Positions 1-39,962 of a DNA stretch of 39,962 bases are shown piece after piece. Position 1 is the first letter of the stretch; every line of letters begins with the position of its first letter. Source of the stretch: Ktedonobacteraceae bacterium (lineage in GTDB: Bacteria; Chloroflexota; Ktedonobacteria; Ktedonobacterales; Ktedonobacteraceae); assembly GCA_039937055.1 (NCBI GenBank), contig JBDTHH010000662.1:1-39962 (forward strand), given 5' to 3'. The notes beneath the pieces were generated by a model, which was given only the letters and a program-made list of their open reading frames with translations, did no database searches and was not told the DNA's origin. The position numbers and the translations under genes were made by a program.

Positions 1-889
1 CGAGGCCCAGAATTTCGCAGGCGCCGCGCACCTCGGCATGCACGGGAATAGCCTGCTCGTCAAGCGCAACTGAAACCTCCGACCCCAGGGCCATCTCGTT
101 GAGTGAAGTCGCGACCCCGCCGCGCGTTGGGTCTTTCAGACAATGGATGCCAGCGCCTGCCGCTTCCAGCAGAGCGGCGACCAGCGTGTGGAGCGGCGCG
201 CTATCGCTTTGAATGTCCGTTTCGATTTCAAGCGCCTCGCGTGCCAGCATAATAGCGATACCGTGATCTCCCACCGGCCCGCTCAATAACACCCGGTCTC
301 CCGGCTGCAAGCAGGTCTGTCCGATCGCTAAGGGCGCGCGAATAATCCCAATCCCTGCCGTGTTGATGAACATGCCATCAGCTTTGCCGCGCTGGACGAC
401 CTTCGTATCGCCTGTCACAATGGCCACACCCGCGGCCGCCGCCGCGCTGGCCATCGAGGCGACGATGGTGCGCAGGTCAGCAATGGGAAAGCCTTCCTCC
501 AGGATAAAGCCCGCCGAGAGGTATAAAGGTACAGCCCCGGACATGGCAAGGTCGTTGATCGTGCCATGCACGGCCAGTTTTCCGATATCTCCCCCTGGGA
601 AGAAAAGTGGGCTGACAACGTAGGTGTCGGTCGTGAAGGCCATCCGCTGGTCCGTTCCCTCAATGGCGAAGGTGGCGGCATCATCCATGGGATCGAGCAT
701 GGGATTGGAGAAAGCTGGCGCGATAACCCCCTCGATGAGATTGTGCGTAGATTTTCCGCCGCTGCCATGGCTGAGGGTAATCTTTTCATCGCGCAAATAG
801 AATTTATGGCGGCGCGCCTGTTTACTGCGCTCGATCTTCTTCAGGATGTCATCCAAGCGTGTCGCGTCACCTGTTACAAACGTATCCAT
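1..889 (-). CDS. hypE: Hydrogenase maturation protein HypE (carbamoyl dehydratase, PurM-like), 3' end truncated by the window edge
   Basis: Open-ended ORF with no stop before the edge, so it is absent from the ORF track. Translation from the ATG at 889: MDTFVTGDATRLDDILKK..EKITLSHGSGGKSTHNLIE..FTTDTYVVSPLFFPGGDIGKLAVHGTINDLAMSGA..IVTGDTKVV..GPVGDHGIAIM..LKDPTRGGVATSLNE, which are classic HypE motifs. SD aaggaagg lies 5 nt upstream, and the gene starts 21 nt after the hypD stop. Confidence 0.93.
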   Translation of the reverse strand, partial: MDTFVTGDATRLDDILKKIERSKQARRHKFYLRDEKITLSHGSGGKSTHNLIEGVIAPAFSNPMLDPMDDAATFAIEGTDQRMAFTTDTYVVSPLFFPGGDIGKLAVHGTINDLAMSGAVPLYLSAGFILEEGFPIADLRTIVASMASAAAAAGVAIVTGDTKVVQRGKADGMFINTAGIGIIRAPLAIGQTCLQPGDRVLLSGPVGDHGIAIMLAREALEIETDIQSDSAPLHTLVAALLEAAGAGIHCLKDPTRGGVATSLNEMALGSEVSVALDEQAIPVHAEVRGACEILGL

Positions 890-910
890 AGTACCTTCCT
901 TAGTGCATAT

Positions 911-2059
911 CTACGATCTGGCCATGGGTAGAATTGAGAGGCGTGTGCGCTCAGATGCCATAGAGAAGCGCCCGTAGTTGAAGTACGCGGCGCATGCGCC
1001 CTCCGGCGACACCATGCACGTGCCGATGGGTGTCTCAGGCGTGCAGGCAGTTCCGAAGACTTTGCACTCCCAGGGCTTAATGACGCCCTTGAGCACCTCG
1101 CCGCACTGGCAGGCCTTGGGGTCAGCCACACGCAGACCAGGCACCTGGAAGCGCGCCTCGGCATCCCAATCGACATACTCTGAACGCAGCTTCAAGGCGC
1201 TGTGCGTGATGAAGCCCAGGCCGCGCCACTCGAAGAACGGTCGGAGTTCCATGGTGGCAGCCATGGCCTGAAGCGCTTTCACATTGCCCTCCGCTCGCAC
1301 GACGCGCGCATACTGATTCTCGACCTCGGCGCGACCCTCGTCTAGCTGCTTCACCAGCATGTAGACCGATTGGATGATATCCAGCGGTTCGAAGCCGGCG
1401 ATCACCACGGGCTTGTGGTGGTCACGCGCCACAAAGTTGTAGGGACGCATGCCGATCACCATACTGACATGGCCGGCGCCGATGAAACCGTCCAGGCGCA
1501 GGTCGGGTGAGTCAAGAATGGCTTTCATGGCAGGAATGATCGTGACATGATTGCAGAAGACTGAGAAATTCTTGATCCCTTCGGCCTTTGCGCGCATGAG
1601 AGTGACGGCGGTCGAGGGAGCGGTGGTCTCAAAGCCGATGGCGAAGAAGACGACCTGGCGCTCGGGATGCTGGCGAGCAAGCTTGAGGGCATCGAGCGGC
1701 GAGTAGACGAAGCGCACATCAGCCCCGTCGGCTTTGGCATCCAGCAGGCTGCCTTTTGAGCCAGGCACGCGCATCATGTCGCCAAAGGTCGTGAAGATCA
1801 CGCCATCCAGACGCGCCATGGCGATGGCATCATCGATGAGGCCCATCGGCAAGACACAGACAGGGCAGCCCGGCCCATGCACCAGGTCGATGTTGGGCGG
1901 CAAGACATCCTCGATGCCATGCTTATAGATAGTATGCGTATGGCCCCCGCACACCTCCATAAACTTGAGAGGTCGGGAAGCTGAGAGTTTCGCAATTTCT
2001 TCACAGATGCGCTTTGCCAGTTCAGGATCGCGATACTCGTCAACATATTTCATGTCCAT
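911..2059 (-). CDS. hypD: Hydrogenase maturation Fe-S protein HypD
   Basis: Track ORF 911..2101. I moved the start to MDMKYVDEYRDPELAK (ATG at 2059, SD aggaga upstream), giving 382 aa. Motifs: VCGGHTHTI, GPGCPVCV, and the C-terminal Cys cluster ..CQCGEVL..CKVFGTAC..PEGACAAYF. Confidence 0.95.
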   Translation of the reverse strand: MDMKYVDEYRDPELAKRICEEIAKLSASRPLKFMEVCGGHTHTIYKHGIEDVLPPNIDLVHGPGCPVCVLPMGLIDDAIAMARLDGVIFTTFGDMMRVPGSKGSLLDAKADGADVRFVYSPLDALKLARQHPERQVVFFAIGFETTAPSTAVTLMRAKAEGIKNFSVFCNHVTIIPAMKAILDSPDLRLDGFIGAGHVSMVIGMRPYNFVARDHHKPVVIAGFEPLDIIQSVYMLVKQLDEGRAEVENQYARVVRAEGNVKALQAMAATMELRPFFEWRGLGFITHSALKLRSEYVDWDAEARFQVPGLRVADPKACQCGEVLKGVIKPWECKVFGTACTPETPIGTCMVSPEGACAAYFNYGRFSMASERTRLSILPMARS

Positions 2060-2121
2060 GGAACTTCTCCTTCTGGTCCTTGCTTTAAAACTACCGGGCA
2101 CGCAGCGTTGTAACTGTCCAT

Positions 2122-2799
2122 CTAAGATGTGGACCTCAATACTGCCTGAATTACCTCAAGAAGCGCATGATAGGCTGTTGCGTGCGCCTCCTGGATGCGC
2201 GGGATGTGGTCGCTGGGCGAGGTGATGCAATAGTCTACTGCCGGCGAGCGCGCGGTTTTTCCACCGTCATAACCAGCCAGCCCGATGGTCAGCAACCCCT
2301 GCTTCTTTGCCTGTTCAAGCGCTACCAGGACGTTGGTCGAATTGCCGCTGGTTGAAATACCCACGGCGATATCGCCCCGGCGCCCGAAGGCAATCATCTG
2401 TCGCGCATAGATATTGTCAAACCCGACATCGTTGGCGACGGCCGTGACGACCGCGATGTCGTTGGTAAGGGCGATGGCAGGCAGAGGCGTCCAGTCGGGA
2501 AAAGGCGGAGTCAGCAGGTCGGCCACCAGATCCTGGGCGTCAGTCGTACTTCCGCCATTGCCGAAAGCCAGCAGCGTGGCTCCATGCGCGAAGGCGAGCG
2601 CCATGGCGCGGCCAGCAGCAATGATGGACTCCAGGGAATATGCGAGCGTTGCGCGCCGCAGGGCTATCACCTCTCGACACTTCTCAAGCGTCGAGTGTTG
2701 CACCTGGGCCTGCACGTCCTCTATGCTGGACTTGCCTCCCTCAAAGAGATAGGGATAAAAGAGCCGGTCGTACTCTGACCCTTCGCTATCAGGCATCAT
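2122..2799 (-). CDS. SIS-domain protein (GmhA/DiaA-like sugar-phosphate isomerase fold), paralogue 2, embedded in the hyp cluster
   Basis: 225 aa with LLAFGNGGSTTDAQD, GISTSGNSTNV and GLAGYDGGK, the typical GmhA-type SIS motifs. The start overlaps the preceding gene by 11 nt. Confidence 0.85.
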   Translation of the reverse strand: MMPDSEGSEYDRLFYPYLFEGGKSSIEDVQAQVQHSTLEKCREVIALRRATLAYSLESIIAAGRAMALAFAHGATLLAFGNGGSTTDAQDLVADLLTPPFPDWTPLPAIALTNDIAVVTAVANDVGFDNIYARQMIAFGRRGDIAVGISTSGNSTNVLVALEQAKKQGLLTIGLAGYDGGKTARSPAVDYCITSPSDHIPRIQEAHATAYHALLEVIQAVLRSTS

Positions 2800-3076
2800 G
2801 CGCCTCGCCTACTCGTGAAATAGCCACGCCGCCATGCACCAGCAACATATCTCCCGCGCCAACATCGTCTACCAGCGAAATATCAACTTCTTCCAGCGCA
2901 TTGCTGATCGTCACAAAGGCGACCCCCAATTGTTGATCGACGCGCAGCACGCGAGCCTCTAATGCCTCGTCGGAACAGGTGATGCAATGTCCCTCTGTAT
3001 CAAGTTCGCAACTGGCGCTATTGTTGGAAGTTCCAAACTCTGTCAGCTCAATAGATGGCCTTTGCTCGTTGCTCAT
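2789..3076 (-). CDS. HypC/HupF-family-like hydrogenase assembly chaperone with an internal CxxC and no N-terminal Met-Cys
   Basis: 95 aa. ..GHCITCSDEALEARVLRVD..VDISLVDDVGAGDMLLVHGGVAI resembles the HypC/HupF OB-fold core. ATGA start/stop overlap with the upstream SIS gene indicates translational coupling. Confidence 0.72.
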   Translation of the reverse strand: MSNEQRPSIELTEFGTSNNSASCELDTEGHCITCSDEALEARVLRVDQQLGVAFVTISNALEEVDISLVDDVGAGDMLLVHGGVAISRVGEAHDA

Positions 3077-3684
3077 GTGAGTAATCCCTCATGTTCGAAG
3101 TAGATATGCACCAGCTCCCATAAAATGTGGTAAAGCGTCTCATGGGTCTCCTGGATGACCATTGGATCGCTGGTCTGCACAACGAAACAGTAATCGGCCT
3201 CGCTCTCTTTCAGCAACCCACCATTTCCTCCTGTGAGACCCAAAGTCAGTAAACCCATGTGCTTTGCTGTTTCCAGAGCTGCCACCACGTTCGGGCTGTT
3301 GCCATCCAGCGAGAAGCCCATGGCGATATCCTGCGGTCGGGCCAGCACCTTGAGCTGACGCACATAGGGCGTTTCAGCGTAGCCCTCATTTTGACTGCTG
3401 AGCGCGGCGCTATCGTTCGTCAACGCCAGGGCGGGGAGCGCTCGCTTGCCAACGATCACTGGATGCACAAACTCGACGGAAACGTGTTGCGCATCGGTTG
3501 CCAGCGCGCCATTGCCGAAGGCTAGCAAACGTCCTCCCTGGTGGAAGCGACGCGCCATGGCCCAGCAACACGCGGCTATGCGTTCCGCCTCTGCCGCAAA
3601 GAATATCTCAGGGACAGCCATACTTTGTGCAAAGCGCGCTGTCACGAGCGCCTTCAGTTGCGGCACATCCATCTCAGTTGGCAT
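3073..3684 (-). CDS. SIS-domain protein (GmhA/DiaA-like), paralogue 1
   Basis: Track ORF 3073..3687 starts at TTG. The ATG at 3684 sits 7 nt after SD aaggagg, giving 203 aa. Motifs: LLAFGNGALATDAQH, GFSLDGNSPNV, GLTGGNGG. Confidence 0.85.
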   Translation of the reverse strand: MPTEMDVPQLKALVTARFAQSMAVPEIFFAAEAERIAACCWAMARRFHQGGRLLAFGNGALATDAQHVSVEFVHPVIVGKRALPALALTNDSAALSSQNEGYAETPYVRQLKVLARPQDIAMGFSLDGNSPNVVAALETAKHMGLLTLGLTGGNGGLLKESEADYCFVVQTSDPMVIQETHETLYHILWELVHIYFEHEGLLT

Positions 3685-3744
3685 CAACCTGCCTCCTTGT
3701 CATGACCATATACTCCTGTTTCATCAAGCTTCATTGGGCAGAGT

Positions 3745-3860
3745 GACGGATGCGGCAAGCCGGGTCCCTACGCGAGAGGGGAAGCGTCCGTCACTCAATC
3801 TGGACGGATGCGGCAAGCCGGGTCCCTACGCGAGAGGGGAAGCGTCTGTTACTCAATTTG
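3745..3860. repeat. Two tandem copies of a 58-bp unit (55/58 identical); the second copy contains the last 4 codons and stop of hypC
   Basis: Unit 1 (3745..3802): gacggatgcggcaagccgggtccctacgcgagaggggaagcgtccgtcactcaatctg. Unit 2 (3803..3860) has the same head with the tail gcgtctgttactcaatttg. Each unit has an imperfect ~10-bp inverted repeat (tgacggatgc / gcgtccgtca). The repeat fills most of the 164-nt hypC-to-SIS gap. Confidence 0.9.
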
Positions 3861-4121
3861 ACTGGTGTGCAGCATATCGATTTCGTCGGTATACGCCTCT
3901 CCCATGAGCAGGAGGGCCTTCATGGTCTCGCGCGCCTCATGCTCGTCAATTTTACTCATGGCAAAGCCTACGTGGATCAAGACCCAATCTCCCGGCTCAA
4001 TGCCTTCTGGACGCACAAGGGCGATGCTCACGTTGCGTCTCACGCCGGAAACATTCACTTTGGCGATGGAATTGGCATCGTCCACGATATCTATAATCTG
4101 ACCCGGAATACCAAGGCACAT
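3849..4121 (-). CDS. hypC: Hydrogenase maturation chaperone HypC
   Basis: Track ORF 3849..4166. I moved the start to the canonical MCLGIPGQIIDIV (ATG at 4121, SD aaggaggg 6 nt upstream), giving 90 aa. Confidence 0.93.
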   Translation of the reverse strand: MCLGIPGQIIDIVDDANSIAKVNVSGVRRNVSIALVRPEGIEPGDWVLIHVGFAMSKIDEHEARETMKALLLMGEAYTDEIDMLHTSQIE

Positions 4122-4168
4122 GTGACCCTCCTTTTCAGGAACTATGGTGGACGCGATCAAGCGCATCC

Positions 4169-6526
4169 CTACATCTGTTGCAACCGGGTAGCCGCTACCG
4201 CAAGCTGGCCCAGGCTGATGCCGCCGTCGTTTGGCGGCACCTGTCGATTGATATATACCTGAAAATCCATCGCCTCCAGGCGGGCGATCAGCATTTCAAG
4301 CAACAGGCTGTTCTGAAATACGCCGCCGCTCAGGGCGACACGATTCAAGCCGGTCCCTTCGCGTACCTCGGAAGTTATCTCCGCCAGTATGCTGGCAAGC
4401 GAGCGATGGAAGCGCCTGGCAATCTGTGGCGCTGGTACTCCTCGCTGGATATCGCTGACGATGGCGCGTATCATAGGGGCGACATCCAATAGGGCAGGTG
4501 TTTGAGCACCAATGATCCATGGATATGCCTCCCTGCTAGCAGCGCTATGCGCATCCTGGCGGTCGCCAGGTGCGGATCGCGCCAGTATCTCAAGCTCGAT
4601 GGCGGCCTGGCCCTCGTAGATGACTTCGCTGCGCAGACCTAGCAGCGCGGCCACGGCGTCAAACAACCTTCCCAGGCTGGAAGTCGCTGGACTATTAAGG
4701 CCGCGCGCGATCATCCGCGAAAGTGTGCGCCACTTTGATCGATCTAACTGCTGTACGAACGGGATCGCGAGATCAAGAAAAGCCTCGCCGTAGGCGCGGT
4801 CGAGGTACGCCGCGGCTACGCGCCAGGGTTGCTGGATAGCCTGGGCACCACCAGGTAGCGGGATGTATGCCAGGTGCGCCAGGCGTGCAAAACCTGCCAG
4901 GTCCGCCGACATAATTTCGCAGCCCCAGATCGCGCCGTCGCTTCCAAAGCCGGTGCCATCGGCGGCCACGCCGATGACCGGCCCGCTCAAGCCGTGCTCG
5001 ACCAACACGCTGGCAATGTGGGCATGATGATGCTGGACAGCGATTTTGCGCGGGATGTCTGAATCGAGCGCGTATTTTGTCGCCAGGTATTCGGGGTGCA
5101 GATCATACGCGATAGCCTGCGGGAAGATAGCGAAGAGACGCTGGAAATGCGCAATCCCCTCCCGAAACGCGAGCAGCGTCTCCACATTCTCTAAGTCACC
5201 GATGTGCTGGCTGACAAACGCCTGTCTTCCCTTGCCCAGGCAAAAGGTGTTCTTGAAGTGGGCTCCGCAGGCAAGCAATGGCACGGGCAGCTCCGCAGTG
5301 AGCAACAGCGGCTCCGGCGCGTAGCCGCGCGAACGGCGGAGAAATTGCGCGCTACCAGCCACAATACGCATCACGCTATCATCGCAGCGCATGTGAATGT
5401 CGCGATTATGCGTGAGCATCCCGTCGGCGATGGCCGCCAGCCGTGTACGCGCATCTTCGTCATGGTAAGCAATCGGTTCATCGCTGACGTTGCCACTGGT
5501 CATGACCAGCGCGGCCGGTTTATCTGCTTCAACGCGAGAAGCAAAAGCGCGCAGGAGTAAGTAGTGCAACGGCGTGTATGGCAGCATGATACCCAACGTG
5601 TTATAGGATGCAGCGACACCCTGTAATACCGGGCAGCCGGCACGCTGTTCCAGCAAAACAATTGGCCGGCGGTGCGATTGCAACAAGGCTTCCTCGGCAT
5701 CGCTCACCGCGCACAGCAGACGCGCAGTTGCCACATCAGGCACCATCAGCGCGAAGGGTTTGGCCTCGCGCCGCTTGCGTACACGTAATTGCTGGACGGC
5801 CTCCACGTTCAATGCGTCGCATGCCAGGTGATAGCCACCCAGACCTTTAATAGCGAGAATGGCACCCGCTGCGAGCTGTTGGGCCGCCTCGTCTATGGCA
5901 TCAGCAGAGTACTGAGAAGAGGAGGAGGACCAAGCGAGCAGGCGAACCTGCGGCCCACAAAGCTGGCAAGCGTTCGGCTGGGCATGAAAACGCCGGTTGA
6001 GCGGATCGCCATACTCCTCCTGGCAGGCCGGACACATGGGAAAAACGTGCATGGTGGTTTTTTCACGATCATAAGGAATATCCTGTACGATGGTGAATCG
6101 TGGACCACAATTGGTACAGTTGATGAACGGATAGTGATAGCGGCGGTTGGCGGGATCGAACAACTCACGCAGGCAGTCGTCACAGGTTGCGCTATCGGGC
6201 GAGATAAGGGCCTGACGTTCAGGGCCTTTCTGACTGTGTACGATACTGAAGCTGTCCTCATGAGAGAGGGGTATGAGTTCTGTCACAACAGCATCGACGC
6301 GCGCCAGAGGAGGGAGCTGCTGGCTCAGAGCGAGCTGGAAGCCAGCGAGTGCTTCGACACTGCCCTCGACCTCAATGGTGACGCCCTGGCTATCGTTGAA
6401 CACAAAGCCGACCAGGTTCCAGCGCAAGGCCTGGCCGTAGACGAAGGGCCGGAAGCCTACGCCCTGGACAATGCCCTGAACGAGGATGCGTCGTCGCTGA
6501 ATTGTCGAATCCACTACCGATGACAT
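4169..6526 (-). CDS. hypF: Carbamoyltransferase HypF
   Basis: Track ORF 4169..6592. I moved the start to MSSVVDSTIQRRRILVQG (ATG at 6526, SD aaagga, 10 nt after the hypB stop), giving 785 aa. Evidence: acylphosphatase motif VQGVGFRPFVY; two Zn-finger pairs CDDC..CTNCGPRF and CPAC..CQLCGP; and YrdC-like plus Kae1-like C-terminal regions. Confidence 0.96.
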   Translation of the reverse strand: MSSVVDSTIQRRRILVQGIVQGVGFRPFVYGQALRWNLVGFVFNDSQGVTIEVEGSVEALAGFQLALSQQLPPLARVDAVVTELIPLSHEDSFSIVHSQKGPERQALISPDSATCDDCLRELFDPANRRYHYPFINCTNCGPRFTIVQDIPYDREKTTMHVFPMCPACQEEYGDPLNRRFHAQPNACQLCGPQVRLLAWSSSSSQYSADAIDEAAQQLAAGAILAIKGLGGYHLACDALNVEAVQQLRVRKRREAKPFALMVPDVATARLLCAVSDAEEALLQSHRRPIVLLEQRAGCPVLQGVAASYNTLGIMLPYTPLHYLLLRAFASRVEADKPAALVMTSGNVSDEPIAYHDEDARTRLAAIADGMLTHNRDIHMRCDDSVMRIVAGSAQFLRRSRGYAPEPLLLTAELPVPLLACGAHFKNTFCLGKGRQAFVSQHIGDLENVETLLAFREGIAHFQRLFAIFPQAIAYDLHPEYLATKYALDSDIPRKIAVQHHHAHIASVLVEHGLSGPVIGVAADGTGFGSDGAIWGCEIMSADLAGFARLAHLAYIPLPGGAQAIQQPWRVAAAYLDRAYGEAFLDLAIPFVQQLDRSKWRTLSRMIARGLNSPATSSLGRLFDAVAALLGLRSEVIYEGQAAIELEILARSAPGDRQDAHSAASREAYPWIIGAQTPALLDVAPMIRAIVSDIQRGVPAPQIARRFHRSLASILAEITSEVREGTGLNRVALSGGVFQNSLLLEMLIARLEAMDFQVYINRQVPPNDGGISLGQLAVAATRLQQM

Positions 6527-6536
6527 GCATGTTCCT

Positions 6537-7211
6537 TTAGTGTCGTGCCGCCCTGACAGATTGCGCGTGACGCAAGGTGACGAGCCAGGCACACCAGGCG
6601 TCGAGGCCCTCTCCTGTGCGACAGCTCACTTCGAAGATACGCAGGCGAGGATTGATCGCCAGCGCCTGCCGTCTGACCTTCTGCACATCGTAGTCAACAT
6701 AAGGCAGCAGGTCGATCTTGTTCACGACCATCACCTCCGCTACCGCAAACATCTGTGGGTACTTGCCTGGTTTATCGTCGCCTTCGCTTGTGCTCACAAC
6801 CACGACGCGCGTATCCTCCCCCAGATCCCATGCCGCCGGACAGACCAGGTTGCCAATGTTTTCGATCACCAGCAGGTCGAGGCTCGCCAGTTCAATCTGT
6901 GCGAGCGCGTCGCGGACCATATGCGCTTCAAGATGGCAGGCTCCGCGTGTATTGATCTGCACCGTCTGAGCGCCTGCCGCCTCGATCCGTTCCGCGTCGG
7001 CGCTTGTCTCCACGTCTCCTTCGATCACTCCGATAGCCAGCCGCCCGCGCAGCCGCTCAATCGTGCGTTCGAGCAGGGTTGTCTTACCCGCACCCGGTGA
7101 ACTCATGATATTGAGCACACAGATACCCTTTCCTGAAAGATCTCCCTGTATCTCGCGGGCAATGGTATCATTGGCCGCCAGGATATTTTGCGCAATGGTG
7201 ACTTTAACCAA
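6537..7211 (-). CDS. hypB: Nickel-inserting GTPase HypB
   Basis: 224 aa, TTG start preceded by gaggaggagg. P-loop MSSPGAGKTTLLE, ENIGNLVCP, NKIDL. No His-rich N-terminal tract. Confidence 0.93.
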   Translation of the reverse strand: MVKVTIAQNILAANDTIAREIQGDLSGKGICVLNIMSSPGAGKTTLLERTIERLRGRLAIGVIEGDVETSADAERIEAAGAQTVQINTRGACHLEAHMVRDALAQIELASLDLLVIENIGNLVCPAAWDLGEDTRVVVVSTSEGDDKPGKYPQMFAVAEVMVVNKIDLLPYVDYDVQKVRRQALAINPRLRIFEVSCRTGEGLDAWCAWLVTLRHAQSVRAARH

Positions 7212-7234
7212 TGGTATACCTCCTCCTCGCCTCG

Positions 7235-7585
7235 TTATGCAGATTCAATCTCCATCTCGATGATCTGGAGTTCGGTGCCAGCAATGACCTCGCTCGACCA
7301 TTCCTGACAGGTCGGGCACTGGACAATGAAGTTCATGACGGCGAACTCTTTGCCGCAGTGACGACAATAGGCGCGGTGCGGCACAGCGTCTATCAACAAC
7401 TGGGCGCCTGCCAGCACTGGATCGAGGCTGACCAGCATCTCGAAACAGAAGGTCAACGAAGCGCCGGCAATGCCGCTGGCCTCGCCAATCTTGAGCCGTA
7501 CGCCTTTCACGCACGTCGCGTTGCACGCGGTGGCCTTCTCCTCCACAGCATCGACGATACTCTGAGCAATAGCGAGTTCGTGCAT
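7235..7585 (-). CDS. hypA: Nickel metallochaperone HypA
   Basis: N-terminal MHELAIAQSIV (MHE Ni site) and the Zn site CRHCG..CPTCQ. The track ORF begins two codons earlier at a TTG (7591), so the start is ambiguous between TTG 7591 and ATG 7585. Confidence 0.9.
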   Translation of the reverse strand: MHELAIAQSIVDAVEEKATACNATCVKGVRLKIGEASGIAGASLTFCFEMLVSLDPVLAGAQLLIDAVPHRAYCRHCGKEFAVMNFIVQCPTCQEWSSEVIAGTELQIIEMEIESA

Positions 7586-7679
7586 GGCCAACCTCGTCTC
7601 CAGTTTTCACTACCTGTATGTGCTACAGCGAATGGATGCGCATAGAGCGCGGAATATGCAGAATATCATGTATGATCCG

Positions 7680-7784
7680 TTACATCGAACGCATCTTCAG
7701 GTAGCGCTGGATATCGGGAAGCGACTGCTGAAAAATCCAGGCACCTATGCCAATGGCAACGACTAAAAACAAGAGCTTGAACAT
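7680..7784 (-). CDS. 34-aa small single-pass membrane peptide MFKLLFLVVAIGIGAWIFQQSLPDIQRYLKMRSM (below the ORF-track cutoff)
   Basis: ATG with SD gaaaggaag 7 nt upstream, on the same strand as the operon, between the endopeptidase and hypA. It has a hydrophobic N-terminal helix followed by PDIxRYLKMRSM. From memory this resembles the small 'DUF6893-type' peptides annotated in actinobacterial hydrogenase loci; that identification is tentative. Confidence 0.6.
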   Translation of the reverse strand: MFKLLFLVVAIGIGAWIFQQSLPDIQRYLKMRSM

Positions 7785-7831
7785 GATAATCTTCCTTTCA
7801 CTAGACTGTATAGGCTACATCTTGACTGTGT

Positions 7832-8398: not shown

Positions 8399-8400
8399 AG

Positions 8401-11162: not shown

Positions 11163-11173
11163 GCTTGCTCACC

Positions 11174-31562: not shown

Positions 31563-31564
31563 CT

Positions 31565-32131: not shown

Positions 32132-32178
32132 ACACAGTCAAGATGTAGCCTATACAGTCTAGTGAAAGGAAGATTATC

Positions 32179-32283: not shown

Positions 32284-32377
32284 CGGATCATACATGATAT
32301 TCTGCATATTCCGCGCTCTATGCGCATCCATTCGCTGTAGCACATACAGGTAGTGAAAACTGGAGACGAGGTTGGCC

Positions 32378-32728
32378 ATGCACGAACTCGCTATTGCTCA
32401 GAGTATCGTCGATGCTGTGGAGGAGAAGGCCACCGCGTGCAACGCGACGTGCGTGAAAGGCGTACGGCTCAAGATTGGCGAGGCCAGCGGCATTGCCGGC
32501 GCTTCGTTGACCTTCTGTTTCGAGATGCTGGTCAGCCTCGATCCAGTGCTGGCAGGCGCCCAGTTGTTGATAGACGCTGTGCCGCACCGCGCCTATTGTC
32601 GTCACTGCGGCAAAGAGTTCGCCGTCATGAACTTCATTGTCCAGTGCCCGACCTGTCAGGAATGGTCGAGCGAGGTCATTGCTGGCACCGAACTCCAGAT
32701 CATCGAGATGGAGATTGAATCTGCATAA
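32378..32728 (+). CDS. hypA: Nickel metallochaperone HypA (mirror copy)
   Basis: Exact reverse-complement twin of 7235..7585(-). Confidence 0.9.
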   Translation: MHELAIAQSIVDAVEEKATACNATCVKGVRLKIGEASGIAGASLTFCFEMLVSLDPVLAGAQLLIDAVPHRAYCRHCGKEFAVMNFIVQCPTCQEWSSEVIAGTELQIIEMEIESA

Positions 32729-32751
32729 CGAGGCGAGGAGGAGGTATACCA

Positions 32752-33426
32752 TTGGTTAAAGTCACCATTGCGCAAAATATCCTGGCGGCCAATGATACCA
32801 TTGCCCGCGAGATACAGGGAGATCTTTCAGGAAAGGGTATCTGTGTGCTCAATATCATGAGTTCACCGGGTGCGGGTAAGACAACCCTGCTCGAACGCAC
32901 GATTGAGCGGCTGCGCGGGCGGCTGGCTATCGGAGTGATCGAAGGAGACGTGGAGACAAGCGCCGACGCGGAACGGATCGAGGCGGCAGGCGCTCAGACG
33001 GTGCAGATCAATACACGCGGAGCCTGCCATCTTGAAGCGCATATGGTCCGCGACGCGCTCGCACAGATTGAACTGGCGAGCCTCGACCTGCTGGTGATCG
33101 AAAACATTGGCAACCTGGTCTGTCCGGCGGCATGGGATCTGGGGGAGGATACGCGCGTCGTGGTTGTGAGCACAAGCGAAGGCGACGATAAACCAGGCAA
33201 GTACCCACAGATGTTTGCGGTAGCGGAGGTGATGGTCGTGAACAAGATCGACCTGCTGCCTTATGTTGACTACGATGTGCAGAAGGTCAGACGGCAGGCG
33301 CTGGCGATCAATCCTCGCCTGCGTATCTTCGAAGTGAGCTGTCGCACAGGAGAGGGCCTCGACGCCTGGTGTGCCTGGCTCGTCACCTTGCGTCACGCGC
33401 AATCTGTCAGGGCGGCACGACACTAA
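32752..33426 (+). CDS. hypB: Nickel-inserting GTPase HypB (mirror copy)
   Basis: Exact reverse-complement twin of 6537..7211(-). Confidence 0.93.
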   Translation: MVKVTIAQNILAANDTIAREIQGDLSGKGICVLNIMSSPGAGKTTLLERTIERLRGRLAIGVIEGDVETSADAERIEAAGAQTVQINTRGACHLEAHMVRDALAQIELASLDLLVIENIGNLVCPAAWDLGEDTRVVVVSTSEGDDKPGKYPQMFAVAEVMVVNKIDLLPYVDYDVQKVRRQALAINPRLRIFEVSCRTGEGLDAWCAWLVTLRHAQSVRAARH

Positions 33427-33436
33427 AGGAACATGC

Positions 33437-35794
33437 ATGTCATCGGTAGTGGATTCGACAATTCAGCGACGACGCATCCTCGTTCAGGGCATTGTCCAGG
33501 GCGTAGGCTTCCGGCCCTTCGTCTACGGCCAGGCCTTGCGCTGGAACCTGGTCGGCTTTGTGTTCAACGATAGCCAGGGCGTCACCATTGAGGTCGAGGG
33601 CAGTGTCGAAGCACTCGCTGGCTTCCAGCTCGCTCTGAGCCAGCAGCTCCCTCCTCTGGCGCGCGTCGATGCTGTTGTGACAGAACTCATACCCCTCTCT
33701 CATGAGGACAGCTTCAGTATCGTACACAGTCAGAAAGGCCCTGAACGTCAGGCCCTTATCTCGCCCGATAGCGCAACCTGTGACGACTGCCTGCGTGAGT
33801 TGTTCGATCCCGCCAACCGCCGCTATCACTATCCGTTCATCAACTGTACCAATTGTGGTCCACGATTCACCATCGTACAGGATATTCCTTATGATCGTGA
33901 AAAAACCACCATGCACGTTTTTCCCATGTGTCCGGCCTGCCAGGAGGAGTATGGCGATCCGCTCAACCGGCGTTTTCATGCCCAGCCGAACGCTTGCCAG
34001 CTTTGTGGGCCGCAGGTTCGCCTGCTCGCTTGGTCCTCCTCCTCTTCTCAGTACTCTGCTGATGCCATAGACGAGGCGGCCCAACAGCTCGCAGCGGGTG
34101 CCATTCTCGCTATTAAAGGTCTGGGTGGCTATCACCTGGCATGCGACGCATTGAACGTGGAGGCCGTCCAGCAATTACGTGTACGCAAGCGGCGCGAGGC
34201 CAAACCCTTCGCGCTGATGGTGCCTGATGTGGCAACTGCGCGTCTGCTGTGCGCGGTGAGCGATGCCGAGGAAGCCTTGTTGCAATCGCACCGCCGGCCA
34301 ATTGTTTTGCTGGAACAGCGTGCCGGCTGCCCGGTATTACAGGGTGTCGCTGCATCCTATAACACGTTGGGTATCATGCTGCCATACACGCCGTTGCACT
34401 ACTTACTCCTGCGCGCTTTTGCTTCTCGCGTTGAAGCAGATAAACCGGCCGCGCTGGTCATGACCAGTGGCAACGTCAGCGATGAACCGATTGCTTACCA
34501 TGACGAAGATGCGCGTACACGGCTGGCGGCCATCGCCGACGGGATGCTCACGCATAATCGCGACATTCACATGCGCTGCGATGATAGCGTGATGCGTATT
34601 GTGGCTGGTAGCGCGCAATTTCTCCGCCGTTCGCGCGGCTACGCGCCGGAGCCGCTGTTGCTCACTGCGGAGCTGCCCGTGCCATTGCTTGCCTGCGGAG
34701 CCCACTTCAAGAACACCTTTTGCCTGGGCAAGGGAAGACAGGCGTTTGTCAGCCAGCACATCGGTGACTTAGAGAATGTGGAGACGCTGCTCGCGTTTCG
34801 GGAGGGGATTGCGCATTTCCAGCGTCTCTTCGCTATCTTCCCGCAGGCTATCGCGTATGATCTGCACCCCGAATACCTGGCGACAAAATACGCGCTCGAT
34901 TCAGACATCCCGCGCAAAATCGCTGTCCAGCATCATCATGCCCACATTGCCAGCGTGTTGGTCGAGCACGGCTTGAGCGGGCCGGTCATCGGCGTGGCCG
35001 CCGATGGCACCGGCTTTGGAAGCGACGGCGCGATCTGGGGCTGCGAAATTATGTCGGCGGACCTGGCAGGTTTTGCACGCCTGGCGCACCTGGCATACAT
35101 CCCGCTACCTGGTGGTGCCCAGGCTATCCAGCAACCCTGGCGCGTAGCCGCGGCGTACCTCGACCGCGCCTACGGCGAGGCTTTTCTTGATCTCGCGATC
35201 CCGTTCGTACAGCAGTTAGATCGATCAAAGTGGCGCACACTTTCGCGGATGATCGCGCGCGGCCTTAATAGTCCAGCGACTTCCAGCCTGGGAAGGTTGT
35301 TTGACGCCGTGGCCGCGCTGCTAGGTCTGCGCAGCGAAGTCATCTACGAGGGCCAGGCCGCCATCGAGCTTGAGATACTGGCGCGATCCGCACCTGGCGA
35401 CCGCCAGGATGCGCATAGCGCTGCTAGCAGGGAGGCATATCCATGGATCATTGGTGCTCAAACACCTGCCCTATTGGATGTCGCCCCTATGATACGCGCC
35501 ATCGTCAGCGATATCCAGCGAGGAGTACCAGCGCCACAGATTGCCAGGCGCTTCCATCGCTCGCTTGCCAGCATACTGGCGGAGATAACTTCCGAGGTAC
35601 GCGAAGGGACCGGCTTGAATCGTGTCGCCCTGAGCGGCGGCGTATTTCAGAACAGCCTGTTGCTTGAAATGCTGATCGCCCGCCTGGAGGCGATGGATTT
35701 TCAGGTATATATCAATCGACAGGTGCCGCCAAACGACGGCGGCATCAGCCTGGGCCAGCTTGCGGTAGCGGCTACCCGGTTGCAACAGATGTAG
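33437..35794 (+). CDS. hypF: Carbamoyltransferase HypF (mirror copy)
   Basis: Exact reverse-complement twin of 4169..6526(-). Confidence 0.96.
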   Translation: MSSVVDSTIQRRRILVQGIVQGVGFRPFVYGQALRWNLVGFVFNDSQGVTIEVEGSVEALAGFQLALSQQLPPLARVDAVVTELIPLSHEDSFSIVHSQKGPERQALISPDSATCDDCLRELFDPANRRYHYPFINCTNCGPRFTIVQDIPYDREKTTMHVFPMCPACQEEYGDPLNRRFHAQPNACQLCGPQVRLLAWSSSSSQYSADAIDEAAQQLAAGAILAIKGLGGYHLACDALNVEAVQQLRVRKRREAKPFALMVPDVATARLLCAVSDAEEALLQSHRRPIVLLEQRAGCPVLQGVAASYNTLGIMLPYTPLHYLLLRAFASRVEADKPAALVMTSGNVSDEPIAYHDEDARTRLAAIADGMLTHNRDIHMRCDDSVMRIVAGSAQFLRRSRGYAPEPLLLTAELPVPLLACGAHFKNTFCLGKGRQAFVSQHIGDLENVETLLAFREGIAHFQRLFAIFPQAIAYDLHPEYLATKYALDSDIPRKIAVQHHHAHIASVLVEHGLSGPVIGVAADGTGFGSDGAIWGCEIMSADLAGFARLAHLAYIPLPGGAQAIQQPWRVAAAYLDRAYGEAFLDLAIPFVQQLDRSKWRTLSRMIARGLNSPATSSLGRLFDAVAALLGLRSEVIYEGQAAIELEILARSAPGDRQDAHSAASREAYPWIIGAQTPALLDVAPMIRAIVSDIQRGVPAPQIARRFHRSLASILAEITSEVREGTGLNRVALSGGVFQNSLLLEMLIARLEAMDFQVYINRQVPPNDGGISLGQLAVAATRLQQM

Positions 35795-35841
35795 GGATGC
35801 GCTTGATCGCGTCCACCATAGTTCCTGAAAAGGAGGGTCAC

Positions 35842-36114
35842 ATGTGCCTTGGTATTCCGGGTCAGATTATAGATATCGTGGACGATGCCAATTCCATCGC
35901 CAAAGTGAATGTTTCCGGCGTGAGACGCAACGTGAGCATCGCCCTTGTGCGTCCAGAAGGCATTGAGCCGGGAGATTGGGTCTTGATCCACGTAGGCTTT
36001 GCCATGAGTAAAATTGACGAGCATGAGGCGCGCGAGACCATGAAGGCCCTCCTGCTCATGGGAGAGGCGTATACCGACGAAATCGATATGCTGCACACCA
36101 GTCAAATTGAGTAA
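35842..36114 (+). CDS. hypC: HypC chaperone (mirror copy)
   Basis: Exact reverse-complement twin of 3849..4121(-). Confidence 0.93.
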   Translation: MCLGIPGQIIDIVDDANSIAKVNVSGVRRNVSIALVRPEGIEPGDWVLIHVGFAMSKIDEHEARETMKALLLMGEAYTDEIDMLHTSQIE

Positions 36115-36218
36115 CAGACGCTTCCCCTCTCGCGTAGGGACCCGGCTTGCCGCATCCGTCCAGATTGAGTGACGGACGCTTCCCCTCTCGCGTAGGGACC
36201 CGGCTTGCCGCATCCGTC
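36103..36218. repeat. Two tandem 58-bp units (mirror copy)
   Basis: Twin of 3745..3860. Confidence 0.9.
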
Positions 36219-36278
36219 ACTCTGCCCAATGAAGCTTGATGAAACAGGAGTATATGGTCATGACAAGGAGGCAGGTTG

Positions 36279-36890
36279 ATGCCAACTGAGATGGATGTGC
36301 CGCAACTGAAGGCGCTCGTGACAGCGCGCTTTGCACAAAGTATGGCTGTCCCTGAGATATTCTTTGCGGCAGAGGCGGAACGCATAGCCGCGTGTTGCTG
36401 GGCCATGGCGCGTCGCTTCCACCAGGGAGGACGTTTGCTAGCCTTCGGCAATGGCGCGCTGGCAACCGATGCGCAACACGTTTCCGTCGAGTTTGTGCAT
36501 CCAGTGATCGTTGGCAAGCGAGCGCTCCCCGCCCTGGCGTTGACGAACGATAGCGCCGCGCTCAGCAGTCAAAATGAGGGCTACGCTGAAACGCCCTATG
36601 TGCGTCAGCTCAAGGTGCTGGCCCGACCGCAGGATATCGCCATGGGCTTCTCGCTGGATGGCAACAGCCCGAACGTGGTGGCAGCTCTGGAAACAGCAAA
36701 GCACATGGGTTTACTGACTTTGGGTCTCACAGGAGGAAATGGTGGGTTGCTGAAAGAGAGCGAGGCCGATTACTGTTTCGTTGTGCAGACCAGCGATCCA
36801 ATGGTCATCCAGGAGACCCATGAGACGCTTTACCACATTTTATGGGAGCTGGTGCATATCTACTTCGAACATGAGGGATTACTCACATGA
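36279..36890 (+). CDS. SIS-domain protein, paralogue 1 (mirror copy)
   Basis: Exact reverse-complement twin of 3073..3684(-). Confidence 0.85.
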   Translation: MPTEMDVPQLKALVTARFAQSMAVPEIFFAAEAERIAACCWAMARRFHQGGRLLAFGNGALATDAQHVSVEFVHPVIVGKRALPALALTNDSAALSSQNEGYAETPYVRQLKVLARPQDIAMGFSLDGNSPNVVAALETAKHMGLLTLGLTGGNGGLLKESEADYCFVVQTSDPMVIQETHETLYHILWELVHIYFEHEGLLT

Positions 36891-37174
36891 GCAACGAGCA
36901 AAGGCCATCTATTGAGCTGACAGAGTTTGGAACTTCCAACAATAGCGCCAGTTGCGAACTTGATACAGAGGGACATTGCATCACCTGTTCCGACGAGGCA
37001 TTAGAGGCTCGCGTGCTGCGCGTCGATCAACAATTGGGGGTCGCCTTTGTGACGATCAGCAATGCGCTGGAAGAAGTTGATATTTCGCTGGTAGACGATG
37101 TTGGCGCGGGAGATATGTTGCTGGTGCATGGCGGCGTGGCTATTTCACGAGTAGGCGAGGCGCATGATGCCTGA
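36887..37174 (+). CDS. HypC/HupF-family-like CxxC protein (mirror copy)
   Basis: Exact reverse-complement twin of 2789..3076(-). Confidence 0.72.
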   Translation: MSNEQRPSIELTEFGTSNNSASCELDTEGHCITCSDEALEARVLRVDQQLGVAFVTISNALEEVDISLVDDVGAGDMLLVHGGVAISRVGEAHDA

Positions 37175-37841
37175 TAGCGAAGGGTCAGAGTACGACCGGC
37201 TCTTTTATCCCTATCTCTTTGAGGGAGGCAAGTCCAGCATAGAGGACGTGCAGGCCCAGGTGCAACACTCGACGCTTGAGAAGTGTCGAGAGGTGATAGC
37301 CCTGCGGCGCGCAACGCTCGCATATTCCCTGGAGTCCATCATTGCTGCTGGCCGCGCCATGGCGCTCGCCTTCGCGCATGGAGCCACGCTGCTGGCTTTC
37401 GGCAATGGCGGAAGTACGACTGACGCCCAGGATCTGGTGGCCGACCTGCTGACTCCGCCTTTTCCCGACTGGACGCCTCTGCCTGCCATCGCCCTTACCA
37501 ACGACATCGCGGTCGTCACGGCCGTCGCCAACGATGTCGGGTTTGACAATATCTATGCGCGACAGATGATTGCCTTCGGGCGCCGGGGCGATATCGCCGT
37601 GGGTATTTCAACCAGCGGCAATTCGACCAACGTCCTGGTAGCGCTTGAACAGGCAAAGAAGCAGGGGTTGCTGACCATCGGGCTGGCTGGTTATGACGGT
37701 GGAAAAACCGCGCGCTCGCCGGCAGTAGACTATTGCATCACCTCGCCCAGCGACCACATCCCGCGCATCCAGGAGGCGCACGCAACAGCCTATCATGCGC
37801 TTCTTGAGGTAATTCAGGCAGTATTGAGGTCCACATCTTAG
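37164..37841 (+). CDS. SIS-domain protein, paralogue 2 (mirror copy)
   Basis: Exact reverse-complement twin of 2122..2799(-). Confidence 0.85.
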   Translation: MMPDSEGSEYDRLFYPYLFEGGKSSIEDVQAQVQHSTLEKCREVIALRRATLAYSLESIIAAGRAMALAFAHGATLLAFGNGGSTTDAQDLVADLLTPPFPDWTPLPAIALTNDIAVVTAVANDVGFDNIYARQMIAFGRRGDIAVGISTSGNSTNVLVALEQAKKQGLLTIGLAGYDGGKTARSPAVDYCITSPSDHIPRIQEAHATAYHALLEVIQAVLRSTS

Positions 37842-37903
37842 ATGGACAGTTACAACGCTGCGTGCCCGGTAGTTTTAAAGCAAGGACCAGAAGGAGAAGT
37901 TCC

Positions 37904-39052
37904 ATGGACATGAAATATGTTGACGAGTATCGCGATCCTGAACTGGCAAAGCGCATCTGTGAAGAAATTGCGAAACTCTCAGCTTCCCGACCTCTCAAGT
38001 TTATGGAGGTGTGCGGGGGCCATACGCATACTATCTATAAGCATGGCATCGAGGATGTCTTGCCGCCCAACATCGACCTGGTGCATGGGCCGGGCTGCCC
38101 TGTCTGTGTCTTGCCGATGGGCCTCATCGATGATGCCATCGCCATGGCGCGTCTGGATGGCGTGATCTTCACGACCTTTGGCGACATGATGCGCGTGCCT
38201 GGCTCAAAAGGCAGCCTGCTGGATGCCAAAGCCGACGGGGCTGATGTGCGCTTCGTCTACTCGCCGCTCGATGCCCTCAAGCTTGCTCGCCAGCATCCCG
38301 AGCGCCAGGTCGTCTTCTTCGCCATCGGCTTTGAGACCACCGCTCCCTCGACCGCCGTCACTCTCATGCGCGCAAAGGCCGAAGGGATCAAGAATTTCTC
38401 AGTCTTCTGCAATCATGTCACGATCATTCCTGCCATGAAAGCCATTCTTGACTCACCCGACCTGCGCCTGGACGGTTTCATCGGCGCCGGCCATGTCAGT
38501 ATGGTGATCGGCATGCGTCCCTACAACTTTGTGGCGCGTGACCACCACAAGCCCGTGGTGATCGCCGGCTTCGAACCGCTGGATATCATCCAATCGGTCT
38601 ACATGCTGGTGAAGCAGCTAGACGAGGGTCGCGCCGAGGTCGAGAATCAGTATGCGCGCGTCGTGCGAGCGGAGGGCAATGTGAAAGCGCTTCAGGCCAT
38701 GGCTGCCACCATGGAACTCCGACCGTTCTTCGAGTGGCGCGGCCTGGGCTTCATCACGCACAGCGCCTTGAAGCTGCGTTCAGAGTATGTCGATTGGGAT
38801 GCCGAGGCGCGCTTCCAGGTGCCTGGTCTGCGTGTGGCTGACCCCAAGGCCTGCCAGTGCGGCGAGGTGCTCAAGGGCGTCATTAAGCCCTGGGAGTGCA
38901 AAGTCTTCGGAACTGCCTGCACGCCTGAGACACCCATCGGCACGTGCATGGTGTCGCCGGAGGGCGCATGCGCCGCGTACTTCAACTACGGGCGCTTCTC
39001 TATGGCATCTGAGCGCACACGCCTCTCAATTCTACCCATGGCCAGATCGTAG
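37904..39052 (+). CDS. hypD: HypD (mirror copy)
   Basis: Exact reverse-complement twin of 911..2059(-). Confidence 0.95.
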   Translation: MDMKYVDEYRDPELAKRICEEIAKLSASRPLKFMEVCGGHTHTIYKHGIEDVLPPNIDLVHGPGCPVCVLPMGLIDDAIAMARLDGVIFTTFGDMMRVPGSKGSLLDAKADGADVRFVYSPLDALKLARQHPERQVVFFAIGFETTAPSTAVTLMRAKAEGIKNFSVFCNHVTIIPAMKAILDSPDLRLDGFIGAGHVSMVIGMRPYNFVARDHHKPVVIAGFEPLDIIQSVYMLVKQLDEGRAEVENQYARVVRAEGNVKALQAMAATMELRPFFEWRGLGFITHSALKLRSEYVDWDAEARFQVPGLRVADPKACQCGEVLKGVIKPWECKVFGTACTPETPIGTCMVSPEGACAAYFNYGRFSMASERTRLSILPMARS

Positions 39053-39073
39053 ATATGCACTAAGGAAGGTACT

Positions 39074-39962
39074 ATGGATACGTTTGTAACAGGTGACGCG
39101 ACACGCTTGGATGACATCCTGAAGAAGATCGAGCGCAGTAAACAGGCGCGCCGCCATAAATTCTATTTGCGCGATGAAAAGATTACCCTCAGCCATGGCA
39201 GCGGCGGAAAATCTACGCACAATCTCATCGAGGGGGTTATCGCGCCAGCTTTCTCCAATCCCATGCTCGATCCCATGGATGATGCCGCCACCTTCGCCAT
39301 TGAGGGAACGGACCAGCGGATGGCCTTCACGACCGACACCTACGTTGTCAGCCCACTTTTCTTCCCAGGGGGAGATATCGGAAAACTGGCCGTGCATGGC
39401 ACGATCAACGACCTTGCCATGTCCGGGGCTGTACCTTTATACCTCTCGGCGGGCTTTATCCTGGAGGAAGGCTTTCCCATTGCTGACCTGCGCACCATCG
39501 TCGCCTCGATGGCCAGCGCGGCGGCGGCCGCGGGTGTGGCCATTGTGACAGGCGATACGAAGGTCGTCCAGCGCGGCAAAGCTGATGGCATGTTCATCAA
39601 CACGGCAGGGATTGGGATTATTCGCGCGCCCTTAGCGATCGGACAGACCTGCTTGCAGCCGGGAGACCGGGTGTTATTGAGCGGGCCGGTGGGAGATCAC
39701 GGTATCGCTATTATGCTGGCACGCGAGGCGCTTGAAATCGAAACGGACATTCAAAGCGATAGCGCGCCGCTCCACACGCTGGTCGCCGCTCTGCTGGAAG
39801 CGGCAGGCGCTGGCATCCATTGTCTGAAAGACCCAACGCGCGGCGGGGTCGCGACTTCACTCAACGAGATGGCCCTGGGGTCGGAGGTTTCAGTTGCGCT
39901 TGACGAGCAGGCTATTCCCGTGCATGCCGAGGTGCGCGGCGCCTGCGAAATTCTGGGCCTCG
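39074..39962 (+). CDS. hypE: HypE, 3' end truncated by the window edge (mirror copy)
   Basis: Exact reverse-complement twin of 1..889(-). Confidence 0.93.
   Translation, partial: MDTFVTGDATRLDDILKKIERSKQARRHKFYLRDEKITLSHGSGGKSTHNLIEGVIAPAFSNPMLDPMDDAATFAIEGTDQRMAFTTDTYVVSPLFFPGGDIGKLAVHGTINDLAMSGAVPLYLSAGFILEEGFPIADLRTIVASMASAAAAAGVAIVTGDTKVVQRGKADGMFINTAGIGIIRAPLAIGQTCLQPGDRVLLSGPVGDHGIAIMLAREALEIETDIQSDSAPLHTLVAALLEAAGAGIHCLKDPTRGGVATSLNEMALGSEVSVALDEQAIPVHAEVRGACEILGL

Follow-up and report, generated by a model that had tools for sequence, protein, structure and literature searches.

A 40-kb perfect palindrome in a Ktedonobacteraceae contig as a probable fold-back misassembly at a native 66-bp hairpin

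The window, which is the whole stretch of 39,962 nt analysed here, is a perfect palindrome over its entire length. It is very probably the product of a fold-back misassembly, as reconstructed below, in which the assembler turned round at a native hairpin of 66 bp. There is almost certainly no giant palindrome in the organism, and the real sequence amounts to 20 kb from the chromosome of a soil Ktedonobacteraceae bacterium.

Symmetry and unique content of the window

In a whole-window self-comparison, the window was found to be its own reverse complement, with 0 mismatches over all 39,962 positions. The base counts are A = T = 8558 and C = G = 11423. The symmetry axis lies between positions 19981 and 19982, with zero spacer, in agreement with the initial annotation of this DNA, which had described a perfect palindrome without a spacer. 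Self-complementarity extending from end to end cannot be due to chance. The ORFs form mirrored pairs with the same translations, for example 19518..19916 on the plus strand and 20047..20445 on the minus strand, as had also been reported. It follows from the exact self-complementarity that 19,981 nt are the whole of the unique information in the window, a figure already given in the initial annotation. The frameshift that it had noted in both arms is real. Compared with the sister strain, 1 nt is missing at about position 10829, and the DUF5947 gene is split as a result; the second arm shows the same frameshift only by virtue of being a copy of the first.

The real content of the window, as judged from domain and protein matches, is that of a single arm carrying a group 1h [NiFe]-hydrogenase cluster together with hyp maturation genes (Table 1). 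The sister contig reaches 340 nt beyond window position 1, and hypE is called there as a protein of 370 aa with AIRS/AIRS_C domains. Since the end of the window cuts hypE in mid-gene, the palindrome stops on its outer sides at arbitrary positions within a gene and not at natural boundaries.

Table 1. Features of the window, with coordinates in window positions
Feature	Coordinates	Strand	Remarks
Arm 1	1..19981		Sole real unique sequence; Ktedonobacteraceae-like chromosomal fragment, from the interior of hypE to the centre of the native palindromic hairpin
Arm 2	19982..39962		Reverse complement of 1..19981; very probably artefactual except for its first 33 nt; no independent information
Native palindrome	19949..20014		66 bp (33+33 nt, no spacer); fold-back centred on it; 3' of the VOC gene
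hypE	1..889	-	Truncated by the window end; last ~223 nt (3' end) absent
Group 1h-type [NiFe]-hydrogenase cluster with maturation genes	911..15120	-	Genes as listed: hypD, SIS, hypC-like, SIS, hypC, hypF, hypB, hypA, endopeptidase, two unnamed genes, DUF6084, DUF5947 (frameshifted), NifU-like, large subunit, small subunit; Pfam, and precomputed Pfam on the sister contig
Hydrogenase large subunit	12222..14018	-	Matches PDB 5AA5 HofG, 1098 bits
Hydrogenase small subunit	14062..15120	-	
Metabolic genes between the hydrogenase cluster and the axis	15752..19191		Pfam; gene order the same in L001 and L086
Biotinyl-carboxyltransferase fusion	15752..17614	+	Pfam
DDAH-like amidinotransferase	17712..18626	+	Pfam
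DUF1801 gene	within 15752..19191	-	Called as 118 aa; Pfam
VOC/glyoxalase-family gene	19539..19916	+	125 aa; Pfam PF00903; final gene before the axis

The native palindrome and the sequence beyond it in relatives

Arm 1 is collinear with the NCBI MAG contig JALYEO010000325.1 at 99.2-99.5% identity, with JALYEP010001094.1 at 94.5% and with a Logan contig at 96.4%. The relatives compared with the window are designated L001 (MAG contig of the sister strain, 99.2%), L002 (Logan contig of the sister strain, k = 31), L086 (94.5%) and L091 (Logan, 96.4%). L001 and L002 may come from one sample and are then perhaps not fully independent. Both encode a VOC protein identical to that of the window, and exact matches to the VOC protein and to HypC occur in sister-strain records. 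The homologues of the VOC protein bear the name Ktedonobacteraceae.

In L001 a perfect 33+33-nt palindrome without a spacer is situated at 10411-10476, centred exactly on the window axis. It begins 32 nt past the VOC stop codon and has a G+C-rich stem placed between a run of five A and a run of five T. A terminator scan scored the palindrome on both strands, with at least 20 pairs, 12 of them G-C, and T5 on each strand. Its RNA fold has an energy of -64.7 kcal/mol (z = -13.5). Going by these features, the 66-bp element looks like a bidirectional intrinsic terminator. It resembles Rho-independent terminators in the composition of the stem, the flanking A- and T-runs, the distance from the stop codon and, apparently, the retention of a hairpin in relatives. 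However, the stem is unusually long for a terminator of this type (~31 bp), and the element is wholly self-complementary, without a loop sequence of its own.

At the homologous site, L086 and L091 have an imperfect hairpin with a normal stem and a loop of ~10-12 nt. The perfect arms measure 7 and 5 nt in these two contigs, and neither has a long perfect palindrome. An alignment of the hairpin across the relatives gave 35 consensus pairs, 2 of which show compensatory changes (3 sequences only). Inside the stem the window has GT at 19955-19956, where L001 and L002 have CA. If the native right arm of the window strain were uncompensated at these two positions, the perfect core would be only 50 bp.

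Arm 1 contains no further local inverted repeat with a length of at least 16 nt, and the 66-bp palindrome is thus the only possible turning point. Searches for the 48-nt core of the palindrome gave no exact match in genome_contigs, metagenome_contigs or viral_contigs, showing that the palindrome is not a dispersed repeat in those three collections. Scans of the arm for Rfam families, tRNAs and tandem repeats returned nothing bearing on the axis.

The identity of L001 to the window stops at the last base of the palindrome, 20014, after which L001 continues into non-mirrored DNA. Downstream of the hairpin, L001, L086 and L091 have one common sequence that is without a match in the window, and the window beyond 20014 in turn matches none of the three. 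L086 runs on for more than 6 kb past the hairpin and carries other genes there. The order in the genome would accordingly be X-P-Y, where X stands for the 19.9 kb that extend from hypE to the VOC gene, P for the 66-bp palindrome and Y for unrelated DNA downstream. A chimeric origin of the X-P-Y join in L001 itself was rejected, because L086 and L091, which lack a long perfect palindrome, show the same adjacency of X, hairpin and Y. Homologues of P0003 that are 90% identical (L087-L090) lie in another gene neighbourhood with a different, shorter terminator and are uninformative on this locus. When the carboxyltransferase was searched against species-representative genomes, relatives were found only at up to ~73% identity (Pseudomonas, Paraburkholderia and others), which are uninformative for the axis.

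The initial annotation had also considered a hairpin-telomere origin. A linear replicon of 20 kb, closed covalently at its telomeres by hairpins, would in that case have been replicated into a head-to-head dimer, and the axis would be the telomere junction left unresolved. The likeness is a formal one: like the dimer junctions of the replicons of phage N15 and Borrelia, the window is a large and perfect inverted duplication with a short palindrome at its centre, and a perfect palindrome on the axis is reminiscent of a protelomerase target site. However, this origin is contradicted at both ends. The relatives pass through the axis into more chromosome, and the other "end" is in mid-gene within hypE, with the sister contig carrying on beyond it. 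The arm encodes chromosomal metabolism, and no protelomerase (TelN/TelK/ResT-type), replication or partition gene was found on it, either by Pfam among 20 ORFs or in the precomputed Pfam assignments of the sister-contig genes. The palindrome, moreover, has the A-tract and T-tract layout of a terminator and is replaced in relatives by an imperfect, looped hairpin. The probability of a telomere junction is therefore negligible.

Origin of the second arm

Up to k = 67, native k-mers suffice to spell out the whole fold-back path; from k = 68 upwards they do not. When a single-copy arm ending inside the native palindrome was used in a simulation, each of the runs with k = 51, 55 and 61 gave a single unitig that matched the 39,962-nt window exactly. 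The Logan contig L002, assembled with k = 31, terminates at window position 19978. This is the branch point predicted for a k = 31 graph when two different flanks enter the palindrome, and it supports an artefact, since no branch would exist at this position in a molecule that is really folded back. These results support one of the routes named in the initial annotation, in which a path in the de Bruijn graph reverses at a short native inverted repeat: the sister strain has a native palindrome on the axis, three relatives pass from it into non-mirrored, mutually homologous DNA, and the native k-mers of one arm are enough to regenerate the window.

Such a turn would arise in the following way. 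P is its own reverse complement, so that in a double-stranded de Bruijn graph both strands would share every k-mer of P, and a walk entering P from X may exit either into Y or into rc(X), the reverse complement of X. With k <= 67, shorter than P plus its flanks, and above all with a poorly covered P-Y junction, a "lonely inverted loop" would be left in the graph. The maximal unitig would then be the palindromic X-P-rc(X), both ends of which would be one and the same graph dead-end inside hypE. The window is probably a complete contig, since its length is not a round number and the axis is exactly centred, and it was probably made by a short-read de Bruijn assembler at a k step between ~45 and 67. 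The largest default k of metaSPAdes is 55, and MEGAHIT includes a step at k = 59. With a perfect core of only 50 bp, folding back at k = 55 would be possible only given a gap in coverage or chimeric reads.

Reads of that kind would be supplied if the DNA had folded back in vitro, by hairpin-primed snap-back during phi29/MDA strand switching or by hairpin end-repair/ligation in library preparation. Real chimeric X-P-rc(X) reads would then have led the assembler round the turn. A perfect 66-bp palindrome forming a hairpin of -64.7 kcal/mol is an obvious site for snap-back. MDA is known for inverted or palindromic chimeras that disturb assemblies, including mirrored contigs in single-cell assemblies, and its chimeras are similar to the window in that a sequence, favourably one that forms hairpins, is joined inversely to its own complement. 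They are usually short-microhomology joins, however, with a deletion between the segments, and occur at many different sites, whereas the junction in the window is seamless and falls at the exact centre of a native palindrome. Chimeric molecules are also not needed to explain it, as native k-mers alone give the exact window. There is no sign that the sample was amplified, and whole-contig palindromes occur also in SPAdes isolate assemblies of unamplified data (PMC9455707). Even if chimeric reads had been present, the assembler would have produced the 20-kb second arm by walking through the same k-mers again, and this arm would still not be independent sequence. A fold-back in vitro is thus unlikely. 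A long read running from the template into its complement, which had been suggested in the initial annotation, was rejected: the junction is seamless and lies exactly on the centre of the only long palindrome in the arm, and a long-read chimera is the less likely because its junction would be expected to fall at a random fragment end.

The fold-back might instead be real DNA in some of the cells, merely reported by the assembler. In this case the 66-bp palindrome would have given rise to an inverted duplication, or a palindromic amplification, at least 20 kb long, either because a broken strand folded back on itself or because a stalled replication fork switched template, and the high-affinity hydrogenase cluster would be doubled in those cells. 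Large palindromes do form in vivo at short inverted repeats, and the window has the same form as these amplifications, a large perfect inverted duplication with a short palindrome at its symmetry centre. This feature, however, is common to the artefact and does not discriminate between the two. The window differs from an amplification in vivo in that the relatives read through the site, all three keeping the ordinary order of X, hairpin and Y, and in that its outer ends lie inside a gene. Both of these ends stop at the same base of hypE, which fits an assembler dead-end but not a duplication with outer junctions of its own. Identical 20-kb arms are collapsed by short-read assemblers, so that a palindromic contig is no evidence for two physical copies. 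Furthermore, a 40-kb palindrome without a spacer is generally expected to be unstable in bacteria, and nothing in the window sequence supports palindromic amplification. A duplication in living cells is thus very improbable, clearly more so than a fold-back in the test tube.

Palindromic contigs in assemblies

Misassembly at the native hairpin would place the window among contigs of a known kind. Besides the isolate assemblies mentioned above, single-cell assemblies contain whole-contig palindromes or mirrored contigs as errors (bioRxiv 10.1101/2023.06.06.543983), and palindromic unitigs and inverted loops are known from theory to arise in doubled de Bruijn graphs (PMC9528984). The window resembles these assembler products in turning at an inverted loop in the graph and in having both contig ends at the same point, and nothing essential differs between them. 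Here, however, the responsible native palindrome could be named and the artefact could be recreated in silico, steps that the papers cited did not take for single contigs.

The 40-kb palindrome itself is no new biology, and its importance is mainly a matter of data hygiene. Palindromic contigs double gene counts, in this case those of a high-affinity hydrogenase cluster, and they exaggerate the length of the contig and the apparent dosage of its genes. There is also a risk that they are taken for genomes with inverted terminal repeats, for hairpin-telomere replicons or for amplification intermediates. Comparing each contig with its reverse complement and discarding those that are identical to it would eliminate such artefacts. 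A natural perfect palindrome of just 66 bp, longer than the commonly used k, suffices to cause the error, and in assemblies with k = 31 this element causes a break whose position can be predicted to the base.

Symmetry of the window and the hairpin at its axis

Over its 39,962 nt the window matches its own reverse complement with 0 mismatches; A is as frequent as T, and C as frequent as G. The symmetry axis lies between positions 19981 and 19982, lacking any spacer, and the ORFs occur as mirrored pairs having identical translations. The description in the initial annotation, of a perfect zero-spacer palindrome containing 19,981 nt of unique sequence, is correct on both points. The length of the window and its exact centring suggest that it is the complete contig.

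The axis is intergenic, 65 nt past the stop codon of the VOC gene. Searched by exact identity, the VOC protein was found in two records, which may share one source sample: L001, part of a sister-strain NCBI MAG contig (GCA_030155785.1, JALYEO010000325.1, 21,841 bp), and L002, a Logan contig (SRR18933242). The identity between L001 and the arm (positions 1..19981) is 99.2%. The match ends at position 20014, 33 nt beyond the axis, with complete divergence thereafter, because a native perfect palindrome of 33+33 nt is situated there, formed by AAAAAGCAACCCCTCAAGATCGAGCGCATCTGC followed without a spacer by GCAGATGCGCTCGATCTTGAGGGGTTGCTTTTT. The centre of this palindrome in L001 coincides exactly with the window axis. 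The window differs from both records at stem positions 19955-19956 (GT/CA). The 66-bp palindrome is predicted by a terminator scan to be an intrinsic terminator on both strands, and its RNA has a folding energy of -64.7 kcal/mol (z = -13.5 against shuffles).

A search for homologues of the VOC protein led to two more distant contigs that cover the axis region. One, L086, belongs to a separate MAG (GCA_030155765.1, JALYEP010001094.1; 94.5% identical, same gene order), and the other, L091, is a Logan contig (SRR33880238; 96.4% identical). At the axis position both have an imperfect hairpin whose loop measures about 10-12 nt and whose perfect arms are only 7 and 5 nt long, respectively. Across the three relatives (n = 3 sequences) the hairpin has 35 consensus pairs, two of them with compensatory changes. 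After the hairpin, L086 and L091 share the downstream sequence of L001; L086 continues for >6 kb past the VOC gene, with a DeoR regulator, an adenine glycosylase, an HTH_17 protein and an MmeI-type enzyme. The downstream DNA of L001, L086 and L091 has no match anywhere within the window. The shared hairpin and common downstream sequence indicate that X-hairpin-Y, where X is the ~19.9-kb stretch from hypE to the VOC gene and Y the downstream DNA, is the native arrangement. It is both the ancestral and the current arrangement of the lineage, and the X-hairpin-rc(X) of the window is without counterpart.

Probable fold-back through the hairpin in an assembly graph

The palindrome P is its own reverse complement, so that in double-stranded data the k-mers within it are common to both strands, and a walk entering P from X can exit either to Y or to rc(X). 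In a de Bruijn graph built from the native L001, the X-P-rc(X) walk is wholly spelled by native k-mers at every k up to 67; from k = 68 on, it fails. According to the model, a k=31 unitig that approaches from the VOC gene side must halt at window position 19978, because the next 31-mer lies wholly within P and has two predecessors. L002 terminates at exactly this position; a truly folded-back molecule would not branch there. Logan contigs are built on 31-mers, all of which are distinct by construction (PMC12424806), and Logan is therefore excluded as the source of the window.

Sufficiency was tested with a plain unitig walker given one arm only, ending within the native palindrome. It produced a single 39,962-nt unitig equal to the window at k = 51, 55 and 61, and both ends of that unitig are the same dead end. 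With k <= 41 the walk is interrupted by a 58-nt tandem repeat, inside which the Logan contigs L084 and L085 (k=31) begin; exact repeats in the arm reach at most 44 nt. Searching the whole arm for local inverted repeats of >= 16 nt revealed none besides P. By default metaSPAdes goes up to k = 55, and MEGAHIT includes a step at k = 59; both values lie in the 45-67 range where the model expects a de Bruijn assembler to have had a k step.

In SPAdes assemblies of unamplified M. bovis isolates, 81 contigs were palindromic over their whole length and were deemed assembly errors (PMC9455707). Rahman and Medvedev showed formally that doubled de Bruijn graphs of the SPAdes type give palindromic maximal unitigs at lonely inverted loops, which SPAdes and MEGAHIT emit whole (PMC9528984).

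The relatives and the k-mer tests support the fold-back chimera preferred in the initial annotation and sharpen it: the window is very probably a fold-back through the native 66-bp palindromic, terminator-like hairpin. Palindromic chimeras also have another known source, MDA. Snap-back at the hairpin in vitro, during MDA or library preparation, is nevertheless superfluous for explaining the window, and we consider it improbable. The seamless junction, placed on the sole long palindrome of the arm, makes a long-read chimera, in which the template runs into its complement, unlikely.

Outer ends of the palindrome

A look-up of HypC returned L083, the left part of the NCBI contig to which L001 belongs. 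It is collinear with window positions 1..14120 (99.5% identity) and reaches 340 nt past position 1. Position 1 falls within hypE, a gene that the sister contig carries as a 370-aa call with AIRS/AIRS_C domains. This location and the further extension of the sister contig indicate that both palindrome ends represent one arbitrary intragenic point and not the ends of a molecule.

The hairpin-telomere dimer, proposed earlier as an alternative, conflicts with the evidence at both ends and with the gene content, and its probability is negligible; no protelomerase, replication or partition function was found among the arm genes (Pfam, and precomputed Pfam of the sister contigs). A real inverted duplication in vivo is highly improbable. 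The outer ends are symmetric and mid-gene, three relatives keep the normal arrangement, and identical arms are collapsed by short-read assemblers, so that the contig is no positive evidence for such a duplication. The 40-kb palindrome itself is almost certainly not real; the genuine sequence is a single arm of 19,981 nt from a Ktedonobacteraceae-like chromosome, and it carries a group 1h hydrogenase cluster.

Gene content of the arm and variation between strains

Features of one arm and positions of the axis hairpin (Pfam here includes precomputed assignments for the genes called on sister contigs)
Feature	Position	Strand	Basis
hypE, truncated	1..889	minus	Pfam
hypD, SIS-domain (two), hypC-family (two), hypF, hypB, hypA, maturation endopeptidase	right of hypE		Pfam
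58-nt unit, 1.9 tandem copies, 96% identical, intergenic between hypC and SIS-domain gene	3745-3857 (mirror 36106-36218)		
Two genes without family assignment, then DUF6084, DUF5947, NifU-like	right of maturation genes		Pfam
DUF5947 gene	10435..11162	minus	Pfam
[NiFe]-hydrogenase large subunit	12222..14018		Pfam
[NiFe]-hydrogenase small subunit	14062..15120		Pfam
Biotinyl-carboxyltransferase fusion	15752..17614		Pfam
DDAH-like enzyme, then DUF1801 protein	between carboxyltransferase fusion and VOC gene		Pfam
VOC/glyoxalase gene	19539..19916		Pfam
Hairpin, window	19949-20014		
Hairpin, L001	10411-10476		
Hairpin, L086	~6420-6475		
Hairpin, L091	~995-1046		

The [NiFe]-hydrogenase cluster at positions 911-15120 is complete and of group 1h type (high-affinity, 5AA5-like), with the full hyp set, two SIS-domain and two hypC-family genes. 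The large subunit matches PDB 5AA5 (HofG) with 1098 bits. 5AA5 is the group 1h/5 "actinobacterial-type" enzyme of Ralstonia eutropha. Such a cluster is ordinary for soil Chloroflexota, but it makes up the real content of the window. The homology search with the VOC protein gave close homologues that carry the name Ktedonobacteraceae. Scans of the arm found no tRNAs or Rfam families.

The hydrogenase-associated DUF5947 gene has a 1-nt deletion at about 10829 relative to the sister strain (GAAAGATATAG to GAAAG-TATAG), outside a homopolymer. It splits the gene, intact at 242 aa in L001/L083, into ORFs of 143 and 150 aa, and is either a real pseudogene of this strain or an assembly error. The best species-representative matches of the carboxyltransferase fusion are from Pseudomonas, Paraburkholderia and Herbaspirillum (~70-73% identity), not Chloroflexota, which may be due to the search method (exact peptide words) or to horizontal transfer. 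The DDAH-like protein has 304 aa in the window and 310 aa in L001. Its low-complexity, Ser/Thr/Pro-rich C-terminal tail and the following spacer (18604-18638; L001 9026-9100) differ between the strains in length and sequence, and are the only non-alignable patch between window and L001 in ~20 kb.

In the lineage of L001, L002 and the window the hairpin has the perfect, spacer-less 66-bp form; both distant relatives have the imperfect, looped form. The differences cluster in the former loop and inner stem, as if intra-strand template switching had "corrected" a quasi-palindrome into a perfect one. A perfect palindrome of 66 bp is apparently tolerated in this genome. Beyond the hairpin, the DeoR regulator and adenine glycosylase genes of L086 (6482-8257) are absent from the corresponding part of L001 (10477-11000). 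The HTH_17 gene is next in both contigs, followed in L086 by the MmeI-type restriction-modification gene. The region just past the terminator is therefore strain-variable.
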